Below, piece by piece: positions 54,820 to 58,455 of a DNA stretch of 64,000 nucleotides (positions are counted from its first letter, which is position 1; each line of letters begins with the position of its first letter). Both the position numbers and the translations under genes were made by a program. The notes below the pieces were generated by a model. That model searched no databases, was not told the origin of the DNA, and saw nothing but the letters and a program-made list of their open reading frames with translations. This DNA comes from an uncultured Candidatus Actinomarina sp. (GTDB lineage Bacteria; Actinomycetota; Acidimicrobiia; Actinomarinales; Actinomarinaceae): the NCBI GenBank assembly GCA_902596545.1, contig CACJUH010000002.1:91881-155880 (forward strand), given 5' to 3'.

Positions 54820-55708
54820 CAACAGTCAATATTGCTTCAATACAGTCTTCTGGGTTATCTTCTTGGACAAAATGTCCACCTTGAATAGTCTTGTGCGGTT
54901 GATTTTCACAACCGGGAACATTTTTAGTAAATGCTTTATCAACACCTTTGAATACATGATCTTGTTCACTAAAAACACATAAAAAAGGTTTGTCCCATTT
55001 TTTTAATTCTTTCCATGCGTTTCTGTTAATTTCTGAACTTGGATCATCTGGTGTAACAGGTACTAACATTGGAAACTGTCTTGCAGCTTCTTTATATGAC
55101 TCATCTGGAAACGGTGCGTTATAAGCATCGATTACATATTGCTCTAGACCGTTGACGGTACCACCTTTTACAATTCCTCCAGCATGGAAATTTTCTACTG
55201 TCTGGGAGTAACTTTTCCAGCTTTCAAATGCTTCACCCGGTGGTACATCACCTGTTGGTAGTCCAGTATTACTTAAAACTACACTATCAAATTTATCTTG
55301 ATTTTCTACAACAAGTCTTAAGCCGATTAATCCACCCCAGTCTTGTCCAAACAGAGTTATATTGTTTAGATTTAAATCCCGTAGCCAAGCATTCATCCAC
55401 GCTACATATTTTTCATATGTGTAAGCCGTTCTTTCAGATAGTTTGTCTGACTTACCAAAACCAGGAAGATCTGGAACAATAACCCTTAAATTATTCTCAA
55501 CTAAAGGATCAATAAATTTTCTATAGATATAACCCCAGTCAGGTTCTCCATGAAGTAATAGTACGGTTTTATCATTTTCTGATCCCTCATCTATATAATG
55601 AATTCTTAAATCTCCGTACTCAGTATTTAATGTGTAGAAATATTCTTTATAATCCCATTCTTTAATGTCTTCAAAATCTGAAGGGCTGTTTTGTAGTATA
55701 TTTACCAT
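54809..55708 (-). CDS. haloalkane dehalogenase
   Basis: LLHGEPDW, PDLPGFGKSDK, GQDWGGLIG, AYNAPFP, GHFVQED. Confidence 0.85.
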   Translation of the reverse strand: MVNILQNSPSDFEDIKEWDYKEYFYTLNTEYGDLRIHYIDEGSENDKTVLLLHGEPDWGYIYRKFIDPLVENNLRVIVPDLPGFGKSDKLSERTAYTYEKYVAWMNAWLRDLNLNNITLFGQDWGGLIGLRLVVENQDKFDSVVLSNTGLPTGDVPPGEAFESWKSYSQTVENFHAGGIVKGGTVNGLEQYVIDAYNAPFPDESYKEAARQFPMLVPVTPDDPSSEINRNAWKELKKWDKPFLCVFSEQDHVFKGVDKAFTKNVPGCENQPHKTIQGGHFVQEDNPEDCIEAILTVAKN

Positions 55709-55717
55709 ACTTTTATT

Positions 55718-56233
55718 TTACAGATTATGAATGACGTTTGTTACAACACCCCAAACAAATGCTTCACTTTCATCTGCAATGATAATTGGATCAAACGCTT
55801 CATTTTCTGGTTCTAAAATGATTCTTTTACCTTTTTTACGATATCTTTTCACTGTAAGTTCATTATCTACAACAGCAATAACTACTTTTCCATCTTCAGC
55901 TTTTAAGCTTCTATCTACAACTAAGATATCGTCTGGAAATATTCCAGCATTGATCATTGATTCTCCAGAAGCTCTTACTAAAAATGTTGATGCAGGATGC
56001 TTTACTAAATATTGATTTAAATCTATTTTGTCTTCTAAATAGTCGTCTGCAGGGGATGGGAATCCAGCTGCAACTTTATTACTATACATTGGTACTTCAT
56101 ACAGCCCTTTGTTGATGACCTCAGAGATATACTTAACCTTGCTTACAGGAATACGAACAGCTTTTGTCTGCTCTCCATACTTGCCTTGACCTTTTGGTCT
56201 ACCGGCTCCTTTTCTTGCTCCACCTCGTGGCAT
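55718..56233 (-). CDS. umuD: UmuD/LexA-family S24 self-cleaving protein with a UmuDAb-like N-terminal extension
   Basis: VAAGFPSPA cleavage site, GESM (Ser), TVKR (Lys), WGVV; N-terminus GGARKGAGRPK..TKAVRIP. Confidence 0.9.
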   Translation of the reverse strand: MPRGGARKGAGRPKGQGKYGEQTKAVRIPVSKVKYISEVINKGLYEVPMYSNKVAAGFPSPADDYLEDKIDLNQYLVKHPASTFLVRASGESMINAGIFPDDILVVDRSLKAEDGKVVIAVVDNELTVKRYRKKGKRIILEPENEAFDPIIIADESEAFVWGVVTNVIHNL

Positions 56234-56256
56234 AAAAATGTCTTTCTTTTTTCTTA

Positions 56257-56274
56257 GAATAGTGTACAGTATTC
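56257..56274. promoter_or_regulatory. 18-bp near-palindrome between divergent umuD and umuC (putative operator)
   Basis: GAATAGTGTACAGTATTC; 8 of 9 symmetric pairs match. It overlaps TAGAAT (+) and TACACT (-) -10-like hexamers. Confidence 0.6.
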
Positions 56275-56288
56275 AAAGGAGTAAGTAA

Positions 56289-57554
56289 GTGAATAATAAA
56301 ATTTTTGCCCTAGTGGACTGTAATAACTTTTATGCGTCTTGTGAGAGAGTATTCAACCCAAAGCTAGAAGGAAAGCCCATTGTTGTTTTGTCTAACAATG
56401 ATGGATGTGTTGTTGCTAGATCAAACGAAGCAAAAGCTTTAGGCATACCGATGGGAGCCCCGTACTTTAAATACAAACAACTTATCAATAGAAACAAAGT
56501 TCATGTATTTTCATCAAACTACACTTTTTATGGTGATATGTCGGCCAGAGTGATGACTTCACTGAAATCTCTTGCCAGCGATATAGAGATTTACTCTATT
56601 GATGAAGCGTTTCTCGATATCAGTAGCTTTTACTACTGTGACTTAGAAGAGACAGCTCAAGAGATACGAAGATTAATCAAACAGTGGACAGGGATTCCAG
56701 TTTCAATAGGCATAGGCCCAACAAAGACATTGGCAAAAGTAGCAAACAGACAAGCTAAAAAATACACACCATCTAATGTCTTCGACATACGAGATCAGAG
56801 TGTAAGAGATGAGATTTTAAAAGACCTACCACTTGAAGAGATTTGGGGAATCTCAACAAGATGGGGAAGAAGACTTCGAAGAATTGGAGTAGATACCGCT
56901 TATGATTTAACACAGGCAAATGCTCGTCATGTCAGAAAAACAATCAGCATTGTAGGGGAGAGGATACATCATGAGCTAAATGGGATTTCCTGTATTGGCA
57001 TAGAAGAGGTGAAGAATAAGAAAAACATCATATCCTCTAAGTCATTTGGTAGAAAAGTAATGCTAGTAAGTGAGTTAGAGGAAGCTGTTTCTAACTATGT
57101 TGCTAGAGCGTGTGAGAAGTTGAGAGCACAGGGTTCTAGAACACAAGGATTGTATGTATTTTTAAGAACCAGTCCATTTGTCGATCCAGAGAAAAGATAT
57201 AGCAACGGTATGAGTACATTTTTTTCAATACCAACAAGCAATACATCAAAGATTGTCAAAGAAGCAAAACATCTAACACGAAAACTCTTTGTCTACGGAT
57301 ATGAATACCAGAAAATTGGTGTAATGCTGTTAGATATTACTGACGCAGAGAACGAACAGTATAGTTTTTATGAATATGAGAATTACGATCAATCAGACCG
57401 TGTTATGAAGGTACTAGATGGCGTTAACAGCAGGTATGGATCAAGCACATTGACATTGGGAGCACAGGGTATAAAAAAAGACTGGAGAATGAAGTCGGAA
57501 AGAAAGTCTGCTGCTTACACAACAAATATGCTTCAAATACCAGTTGTGAAGTAA
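56289..57554 (+). CDS. umuC: Y-family DNA polymerase V catalytic subunit
   Basis: [37 protein letters not shown]-terminal W.MK....S..YTT. Confidence 0.93.
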
Positions 57555-57588
57555 GAAAAGTGTGAAGTAATCTGTTTAAATTAAAGTT

Positions 57589-58455
57589 ATGGTTTTAGAG
57601 AATCCATATGCACACTCACTAGATGGTCTTGCAATAGAGGACCCAGTACAAAGCTTTTTTGATTACTGCAAGAAACGTGAGGCTGTGCGTGTAAAAAGAG
57701 AGTCAGGAGAAGCATATCCTTGGAGTGATGACCCGATTTTACAAAAAGGGCGTTTTTTAAATGTTTTTAGAGAGGATGACAAAGTAAGTAAATCCATTAT
57801 TAAATTTGCTGAACCAGTCAAAGAGGACTTACCTTTGTTAATCCAAGCTCTATTTTTTAGTCGGTGGTGCAACAGAGATTTAACTATTGATCAGTTAACG
57901 ATAAATGATTTAGATAATCCAGAAGCTTTAAAAGAGAGACTTCTTGGATTAGAGCAGTGGGATAATATCACAGCATACCCGGTAGAAGATTCCCATTGGA
58001 ATCAAAATTTATATAGCCGAATAGATGCAGCCACATACAAATTTTATGAAAAAAAAGATGAGTTAGCTGAAATAGTTTTAAATTCTAATAGAGATGTAAT
58101 TACTGCTACAAACAATGTAAATAAGCAATTTAGGATGAAAAATGACTTCCCAATATTCATGGCTTTGATAGATATTGCCTGGTTTAGAGAAGATGTTATA
58201 CCAATTACCACTGATGTTCCAACTGGCATTGGTGCAGAACCATATTTAGATAGGCTCCAAAATTTTCTTAATTTAAATACCCACCAAGATGTAGGCCTTA
58301 AAATGATAGAACTTCAAAAAGAATATTGGCCTGAAGCTAAAAGAGAGTTTTATCCTATTGACATAGAGTATCAATCTTGTGAATGCAGAAAGTACTTTAG
58401 CTATGTGAATGGTACAAAAAAATTTGAAGGAAAAAATCTTTTCTCCATGGAATGA
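57589..58455 (+). CDS. aGPT-Pplase / 5-hmdU DNA kinase helical-domain-like protein
   Basis: R....KRESG..YPWSDDPIL..RFLNVFREDDKVS and C-terminal DIEY..CE.RKY, recalled as signatures of this family. Confidence 0.6.
   Translation: MVLENPYAHSLDGLAIEDPVQSFFDYCKKREAVRVKRESGEAYPWSDDPILQKGRFLNVFREDDKVSKSIIKFAEPVKEDLPLLIQALFFSRWCNRDLTIDQLTINDLDNPEALKERLLGLEQWDNITAYPVEDSHWNQNLYSRIDAATYKFYEKKDELAEIVLNSNRDVITATNNVNKQFRMKNDFPIFMALIDIAWFREDVIPITTDVPTGIGAEPYLDRLQNFLNLNTHQDVGLKMIELQKEYWPEAKREFYPIDIEYQSCECRKYFSYVNGTKKFEGKNLFSME

Follow-up and report, generated by a model that had tools for sequence, protein, structure and literature searches.

What controls an error-prone polymerase whose two genes face away from each other across a spacer that holds no canonical LexA box? 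The question is raised by a locus of an uncultured Candidatus Actinomarina sp., within a stretch of 64,000 nucleotides, hereafter the window (assembly GCA_902596545.1, contig CACJUH010000002.1, positions 91,881 to 155,880), in which umuD is read from the minus strand and umuC from the plus strand (Table 1). The initial annotation of this DNA had described the two genes as head to head across 55 bp, and the coordinates of the open reading frames bear this out. In the reading that we regard as probable, the pair would encode a self-repressor that is independent of LexA, is triggered by RecA and becomes UmuD' after cleavage. The computed support for this reading is the homology of the UmuD head, the conservation of the cleavage and catalytic residues, the type of the operator and its link with the head across phyla, and the strict conservation of the operator within the order Actinomarinales; that UmuD binds DNA and represses both genes, is cleaved with the help of RecA and serves as the accessory subunit is what we infer from experiments in Acinetobacter.

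Firstly, UmuD has the body of a polymerase V subunit. It matches Pfam Peptidase_S24 (residues 48-164) and, over all profile positions (1-115/115), the NCBIfam Pol V autoproteolytic subunit NF007621, with 163.1 bits against a cut-off of 110. Its closest solved chain is that of E. coli UmuD (8gmt_B, 7e-32), with LexA behind at 8e-20, while the LexA profile TIGR00498 is matched over its positions 74-201 only and with 104.6 bits, under the cut-off of 110.95. UmuC matches Pfam IMS, IMS_C and DUF4113, and aligns over positions 1-422 of the NCBIfam UmuC profile NF002955 with 421.8 bits, slightly under the cut-off of 431. The pair thus resembles its E. coli counterpart: the C-terminal 115 residues of UmuD align end to end with UmuD', UmuC has the same three domains, and RecA-stimulated cleavage would presumably yield an active accessory subunit. 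It departs from E. coli umuDC in standing head to head instead of forming an operon, in having no LexA box, and in placing 56 residues instead of 24 before the cleavage bond, the extra 32 making up a conserved head. Among 26 diverse relatives, G11, R12, P29, A56, G57 and K129 are invariant and S92 is kept in at least 90%; in 12 closer relatives A56, G57, S92 and K129 are all invariant. Relatives at 58-64% identity retain the N-terminus M-x-[RKH]-GG-x-R-x-GAGRPKGQGK[FY]GE-x-TK-x-[IV]R[IV]P.

Secondly, the extra 32 N-terminal residues are homologous to the N-terminal domain of Acinetobacter UmuDAb (A1S_1389 / ACIAD2729). The initial annotation had noted a resemblance to the GGAR..AGR extension of that protein, and the resemblance proves to be one of descent. 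The comparison gene came from a metagenome contig fetched with 27 nt of the published probe for electrophoretic mobility shift assays (PMC11332147), which matched 24 contigs. On the contig used (L137), a 203-aa UmuDAb lies beside the operator and an 82-aa DdrR open reading frame on its opposite side; this UmuDAb is 93.6% identical to three named A. baumannii records and has E24, K40 and A83-G84 at the published positions. BLASTP aligned UmuD with it over the whole protein, from residue 3 onwards, at 39% identity (E 4e-45). The alignment spans the GGAR..AGR arm, the segment E.TK.[IV]R[IV]P.S.V and the helix, with an extra 24-residue linker in UmuDAb, and pairs E24 of UmuDAb with the nearly invariant E21 of UmuD. 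According to the available text of two papers, deleting residues 2-59 of UmuDAb, or mutating E24 or K40/R41, derepresses its targets (PMC4807011, PMC11332147). The text at hand further reports that purified UmuDAb binds its site, that repression requires both the head and the dimer interface, and that a non-cleavable form is uninducible (PMC4807011, PMC11332147, PMC13062779).

The likeness between the two systems extends beyond the head. Both proteins have the GG.R..AGR arm, the E.TK.[IV]R[IV]P strand, one helix, an Ala-Gly cleavage bond and a Ser/Lys dyad; both systems, as far as the available text of the Acinetobacter papers describes theirs, have an operator in which TTGA/TCAA arms flank a GTAC-type core, set in a divergent promoter region that two genes share, and a narrow regulon consisting of error-prone polymerase genes and the regulator itself (PMC11332147, PMC4807011). 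There are also differences. UmuD has 171 residues against 203, the 24-residue linker being absent, and its predicted cut falls at Ala56-Gly57 instead of Ala83-Gly84; its divergent partner is umuC, whereas in Acinetobacter it is ddrR; its operator candidate measures 22 bp (N5, 4-bp core) against 21 bp (N4, 5-bp core) and occurs once in the genome, whereas Acinetobacter has sites at several polymerase loci; and its host has a working-looking LexA and RecA, whereas Acinetobacter has no LexA.

The structure of the head was approached by prediction. In the AlphaFold2 model of UmuD (mean pLDDT 79), residues 1-20 form a disordered arm, which is followed by a short extended stretch and by only one helix, at 30-42. 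A Pfam scan of the first 54 residues, with E up to 10, returned no family. A complex prediction with two copies of residues 1-52, which asked for a ribbon-helix-helix pairing, gave 0.16 against a mark of 0.42 and carries no weight either way, and an ESM Atlas search with residues 1-46 reached at best 0.80-0.84, below the meaningful level, with hits that seem to be pieces of this very family. We also considered whether the head might be a helix-turn-helix, as has been modelled for UmuDAb, and dropped the idea: the part common to the shorter UmuD has one predicted helix only. The GRP core of the arm, together with KRPVGRPKGSGKK repeats in relatives, suggests AT-hook-like contacts with the minor groove in the AT-rich N5 stretches of the operator. 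Some relatives (P0168, of 400 aa; also P0135, P0138 and P0140) have long basic N-terminal tails before the head, and that of P0168 contains five or six KRPVGRPKGSGKK repeats with an AT-hook-like look.

Thirdly, the spacer holds a candidate operator of the UmuDAb type. The palindrome overlapping -10-like hexamers on both strands, to which the initial annotation had drawn attention, is indeed present: 16 of its 18 positions are self-complementary (8/9 arm pairs), the mismatch being G/G at positions 6 and 13, and TAnnnT hexamers overlap it on the plus strand (TAGAAT, TACAGT) and on the minus strand (TATTCT, TACACT). Taken by itself, such a palindrome is only modestly improbable, 53 of 5000 dinucleotide shuffles of the spacer also giving 8/9. 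The 22-bp candidate around it reads TTGAATACTGTACACTATTCTA on the umuD strand, that is, a TTGA arm, an N5 stretch (ATACT), a GTAC core, a second N5 stretch (ACTAT) and a TCTA arm. The published UmuDAb site, in the available text of its description, is TTGA-N4-GTWAC-N4-TCAA, 21 bp long, with a core that outweighs either arm (PMC11332147). Sequence comparison supports the palindrome as the core of a UmuDAb-type operator that tracks the UmuD head across phyla.

Within the order, this spacer is held under strong constraint. A full-length UmuD of 170-171 residues, at 75-100% identity, is found in 58 of 65 genomes; the seven genomes without it are 66-85% complete, and it is present in every one of the 12 genomes with a completeness rating of at least 90%. 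We read 50 loci, one on a short contig with umuD only and 49 with both genes. The two genes are divergent in 49/49 two-gene loci, with spacers of 54-59 bp, and TAGAATAGTGTACAGTATTCAAAG is unchanged in 48/49, so that the proposed palindrome proves conserved in homologous divergent pairs; the remaining locus has a single G-to-T change at an N5 position. The AGGAG before umuC is kept in most loci of the order. Among 47 distinct sequences, 42/60 spacer columns are invariant, against 1/60 third codon positions in umuD and 7/60 in umuC. The contrast between an invariant spacer and scrambled third positions therefore indicates strong selection on the spacer, the ribosome-site flanks included. The stretch that adjoins the umuD start (Table 1) varies no more across the order than the operator does. 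The AAAGGAG region of umuC is mirrored in it, and it could serve umuD as ribosome site or leader.

Does the operator follow the head outside the order? We searched a public genome collection with an alignment of the 12 closer rows, obtained 80 related umuD loci and read 140 bp upstream of each, using a relaxed operator model with N4-5 spacers, a 4-5 bp core and 12 fixed positions. The loci span the PS1 and OCS116 clades, Legionella, Thioglobus, Methylococcaceae, Aquitalea, Opitutales, Planctomycetes, cyanobacteria and Margulisiibacteriota, and in nearly all of them the upstream stretch shows a site of this sort. At least 11/12 positions of the model are matched in 46/65 loci whose alignment begins at residue 5 or earlier, against 4/2600 dinucleotide shuffles. 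The arm motif itself is present in 72/80 loci, and these split into 53 that score at least 11, 11 that score 10 and 8 that score 9 or less; of the arm-less loci, a control of only eight, 0/8 score at least 11. When the arm-bearing proteins are clustered at 70% identity, the 40 clusters fall into 26, 7 and 7 in the same three classes. Spacing varies within the family: the 26 representative sites comprise 13 with N5 and a 5-bp core, 11 with N5 and a 4-bp core and 2 with N4 and a 4-bp core. In a library of 1.8 billion proteins, the best 150 clusters (50% identity) include 68/150 with the strict arm pattern and 84/150 with a relaxed one, with lengths of 98-263 residues and a variable linker before the S24 domain. 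The taxa with arm-bearing umuD are Pseudomonadota, Verrucomicrobiota, Planctomycetota, Cyanobacteriota, Margulisiibacteriota and Actinomarina, and such genes also lie on plasmids of Legionella, Acinetobacter and cyanobacteria.

The gene order differs outside Actinomarina. There, arm-bearing umuD is mostly the first gene of a co-directional umuD-umuC operon, with the site 0-81 bp from the start codon, and about 20 loci have no umuC within the fetched flank. The head-to-head layout is therefore best seen as a local rearrangement that retained the operator in between. The sole other divergent pair among the related loci is that of Hydrogenovibrio halophilus (L113 2340-2480), an independent head-to-head pair whose spacer of about 109 bp contains one 10/12 site (ATAATTTGTGTAACTTTTTTCAA) and a second half-site-like sequence, TTGATTATTGTTAC. 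Arm-bearing umuD with its site is also found on plasmids: the conjugative L. pneumophila Lens plasmid pLPL carries one with a site, ATGATATTTGTACGTAAATCAA, 13 bp before the start, and Acinetobacter plasmids bear arm-type umuD genes as well. On pLPL (L161 451-3025), a gene for an SOS-response-associated peptidase (SRAP) lies immediately upstream of the umuD-umuC operon and its operator-like site. On a plasmid of Synechococcus elongatus UTEX 3055 (L162 1450-2887), an arm-bearing umuD, with GAATTCTGTACAGAAATT abutting its start codon, stands without umuC and is followed by DUF433, DUF2281 and a PemK/MazF toxin gene.

The dyad might instead be promoter or leader architecture, either back-to-back -10 boxes with ribosome sites or a hairpin formed in both mRNAs, with the head serving another purpose, for example RecA-filament contact, turnover or clamp binding. 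Such an explanation would suit the conservation of the whole spacer beyond the site, the TAnnnT hexamers within the dyad, the absence of a known DNA-binding fold in the head, and the result of a repeat search in which the spacer dyad extends to 27-nt arms at 78% complementarity and spans both ribosome-binding regions. It does not fit the sites themselves, since the motif is also found in the co-directional operons, which have no divergent promoter, and since arms and core are conserved as sequence. The half-site consensus of 24 representative sites from other lineages is TTGAWTWnTGT; outside the positions used for selection, positions 5 and 6 are exclusively A/T and position 9 is T in 39/48 half-sites, while position 8 is free and symmetric in only 9/24 sites. 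These biased positions, together with a free and non-complementary position 8, form a protein-site pattern and not that of an RNA hairpin. In addition, binding of the equivalent site by purified UmuDAb in vitro, and derepression once its head is lost, are reported in the available text (PMC11332147, PMC4807011). We consider the promoter or leader explanation very unlikely, and keep to the reading of the palindrome as an operator.

If the palindrome is an operator, could it belong to LexA? The source genome (1.10 Mb, 17 contigs, GC 0.325, rated 94.65% complete) has two S24 proteins, UmuD, which is its only UmuD, and LexA. Of the two genes that the initial annotation had raised, lexA is thus present, with canonical boxes of its own elsewhere, and dnaE2 was not found. 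The lexA gene is divergent from a LysM-domain gene and nrdR, an arrangement typical of actinobacteria, and GAACATATGTTC stands about 95 bp before the Pfam match of the single recA, 4 kb from lexA. GAAC-N4-GTTC occurs 10 times in the genome, and the boxes at lexA and recA fit it exactly; it is missing from the umuDC spacer, as the initial annotation had stated of the palindrome, and from all 49 spacers of the order, a UmuDAb-type site standing there instead. The strict, order-specific operator motif is unique in the 1.1-Mb genome. A loose scan gave 24 hits of at least 11/12, about chance level, and among 9 that were checked the umuDC site alone is intergenic and 8 lie within open reading frames; the scan gave no sign of a wider regulon. 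The umuC gene is the only Y-family polymerase gene (a single IMS match genome-wide), one Pol III alpha match was obtained, and genome searches found no dinB, imuB or dnaE2. No translesion system other than UmuDC thus came to light, and none of the visible LexA boxes lies at it. That the canonical LexA of the host binds the palindrome as an unusual, widely spaced box, leaving umuDC an ordinary SOS pair, is an idea encouraged by similar half-sites (TAGAAT/ATTCAA in the spacer, TAGAAC/GTTCGA at lexA) and by the presence of LexA and RecA some 20-24 kb from umuDC. We judge it extremely unlikely: the arms of the palindrome are 10 bp apart, not 4 as in the boxes at lexA and recA, and the same type of site precedes arm-bearing umuD in Legionella, cyanobacteria, Verrucomicrobiota and others, where LexA motifs are different or lacking, so that it tracks the head and not the host.

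Table 1. Features of the umuD-umuC locus and related genes; positions refer to the window except for lexA, which is given on contig C2 of the source genome (G000).
Feature	Position	Strand	Size and remarks
umuD	55718-56233	minus	171 aa; starts MPRGGARKGAGRPKGQGKYGEQTKAVRIP; open reading frame
umuD codons 1-56	56066-56233	minus	basic Gly/Arg arm (GGARKGAGRPKG), extended TKAVRIP segment, one helix (30-42), to the predicted Ala56-Gly57 bond
S24 catalytic dyad stretch	55847-55960	minus	Ser92 codon 55958-55960 to Lys129 codon 55847-55849
umuC	56289-57554	plus	421 aa; GTG start; open reading frame
Likely umuC ribosome-binding site AGGAG	56277-56281	plus	7 nt before GTG, read from the sequence
Shared spacer of the divergent pair	56234-56288	none	55 bp
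UmuDAb-type operator candidate TAGAATAGTGTACAGTATTCAA	56255-56276		22 bp; 11/12 model positions
Imperfect palindrome GAATAGTGTACAGTATTC	56257-56274		within the 22-bp operator candidate
Stretch adjoining the umuD start, ATGTCTTTCTTTT	56234-56254		AAAAGAAAGACAT on the umuD strand
288-aa gene	57589-58455	plus	34 bp 3' of umuC
lexA	C2:171975-172565		196 aa; canonical; TAGAACAAATGTTCGA box 22 bp before start

How would such a module work? Full-length UmuD, dimerised by its S24 domain, would bind TAGAATAGTGTACAGTATTCAA through the N-terminal head, which is pictured as one helix preceded by a short strand and a basic arm resembling an AT-hook. Since the operator fills the centre of the 55-bp spacer, UmuD sitting on it would obstruct the umuD promoter and the umuC promoter alike. 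Upon DNA damage, RecA filaments would stimulate self-cleavage at Ala56-Gly57 by the Ser92/Lys129 dyad; cleavage would separate the head from the dimerising body and thereby lift repression, and the 115-residue product, UmuD', would join UmuC as polymerase V. The logic would be that of canonical LexA, in which a DNA-binding N-terminal part is followed by a self-cleaving S24 domain for dimerisation, and RecA relieves repression. UmuD differs from LexA in having no winged helix-turn-helix (LexA_DNA_bind; it matches S24 only in Pfam) and in its binding motif. The non-canonical LexA of Bacteroidetes, HdiR of Streptococcaceae and FddR of Francisella are likewise S24 peptidases that control error-prone polymerases or a small damage regulon, according to the available text on them; unlike UmuD here, they have helix-turn-helix heads of the phage CI type and cluster with phage repressors (PMC8565304, PMC13148647). 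Compared with proteins of the HdiR/FddR type, UmuD combines a UmuD body with a short arm-type head.

Does a single protein fill both roles? It may have one only: it could be purely a repressor, its body being of no use to UmuC after cleavage, or an ordinary UmuD in which the head adjusts cleavage and some other factor represses. In favour of a single role, UmuDAb was long regarded as a regulator only, and roughly 20 arm-bearing umuD genes stand without umuC in the fetched flank. In the streamlined Actinomarina genome, however, the only UmuD adjoins the only UmuC, the UmuD body scores above the NCBIfam cut-off for the Pol V subunit and is closest to E. coli UmuD, most relatives stand in umuD-umuC operons, and full-length UmuDAb supports mutagenesis with UmuC2015 in E. 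coli, as the text available states (PMC13062779). We hold a single role to be unlikely. The dual role is plausible, given the only UmuD beside the only Y-family polymerase, a body nearer E. coli UmuD than LexA, and the mutagenesis that the accessible text reports for UmuDAb (PMC13062779).

Several points weigh against the self-repressor reading. The organism is uncultured. The head has no recognisable DNA-binding fold: no Pfam family matches it, and its one helix is predicted with moderate confidence. The geometry of the candidate departs from that of the published site, being 22 bp with N5 and a 4-bp core, and one of its arms reads TCTA, not TCAA. Overlap of the 22-bp site with the umuD and umuC promoters is assumed; a sigma-70 scan of positions 55600-57700 returned two sites, and no full two-hexamer promoter in the spacer. 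Full repression in Acinetobacter requires DdrR, of which this genome has no homologue that we could find (tblastn with the DdrR open reading frame of the fetched contig, best E 0.51). Among the arm-bearing loci, 19/72 score 10 or less, the operator model was partly shaped on loci that were later counted, and many of these loci are related to one another. Finally, contigs of four metatranscriptome runs (four studies, ambient seawater) cover umuD and umuC at a likeness of at least 92%, some of them bridging the spacer; these contigs tell nothing of strand, start or level and may stem from carried-over DNA, and if they represent real RNA, repression would be at most partial.

Where did the cassette come from? 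In a sample of the class (301 genomes), the gene is present in 58 genomes, all of one family, and in 0/236 genomes from 48 other families. The distance of about 24 kb between umuD and lexA is kept in many genomes of the order, which fits vertical descent within it. In a quick UmuC tree (49 rows chosen by likeness to the query, unrooted), Actinomarina forms a clade with 100% support, placed within a 16-row group (SH-aLRT 90, not starred) whose other members are Pseudomonadota: Rickettsiales, PS1/OCS116 and Puniceispirillales. These data are compatible with one old acquisition from marine proteobacteria but do not prove it. The horizontal origin put forward in the initial annotation is supported in the form of a probable old, single acquisition by the family, in view of the family-only distribution and the UmuC tree, and not as a recent island. 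GC content lends no support to transfer. The impression of a less AT-rich region finds little backing: GC content is 0.369 in the cassette and averages 0.325 (sd 0.033) over the genome, in which 7.3% of windows of the same size reach at least the cassette value. GC content was for that reason rejected as a signal of transfer.

Downstream of umuC lies a 288-aa gene (Table 1) without an NCBIfam match. In Pfam it matches only the helical N-terminal part of HMUDK_hel (5-hmdU DNA kinase), at residues 20-72 with E 6e-18. Close relatives, and some of those at 62-66% identity, also have it after umuC, but tblastn did not find it in the most divergent of the fetched loci of the order; it is therefore no fixed part of the cassette.

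What is new here, as supported by sequence comparison, is that a host with LexA carries a module of the UmuDAb type in which DdrR is missing, the linker is short, the site measures 22 bp and umuD stands head to head with umuC. Subscription journals and supplements lying outside the scope of the search, we found no report of an arm-bearing UmuD family beyond Acinetobacter; by title and abstract, the papers naming UmuDAb among the matches listed concern Acinetobacter or Moraxellaceae, or else mention the protein in passing. In the available text, UmuDAb is portrayed as a peculiarity of Acinetobacter, a genus without LexA, whereas here the same head and operator are found in an actinobacterium with a normal LexA. 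The finding suggests that DdrR is dispensable for the basic design, that error-prone synthesis can be wired apart from the main SOS regulon, and that this design is common in abundant ocean bacteria. With 171 residues and a 22-bp site, the module would also be a small model for a DNA-binding head without an assigned fold. We see about even chances that arm-bearing UmuD together with its operator is a mutagenesis module that can move between hosts without relying on their LexA, in which the dual role is ancestral and widespread and UmuDAb/DdrR of Acinetobacter is one derived offshoot. LexA boxes differ among phyla, while activated RecA is universal. If the proposal is true, a umuDC cassette that brings its own repressor would be damage-inducible in any host, which would explain its spread and offers a reason why such cassettes travel easily between phyla and on plasmids.

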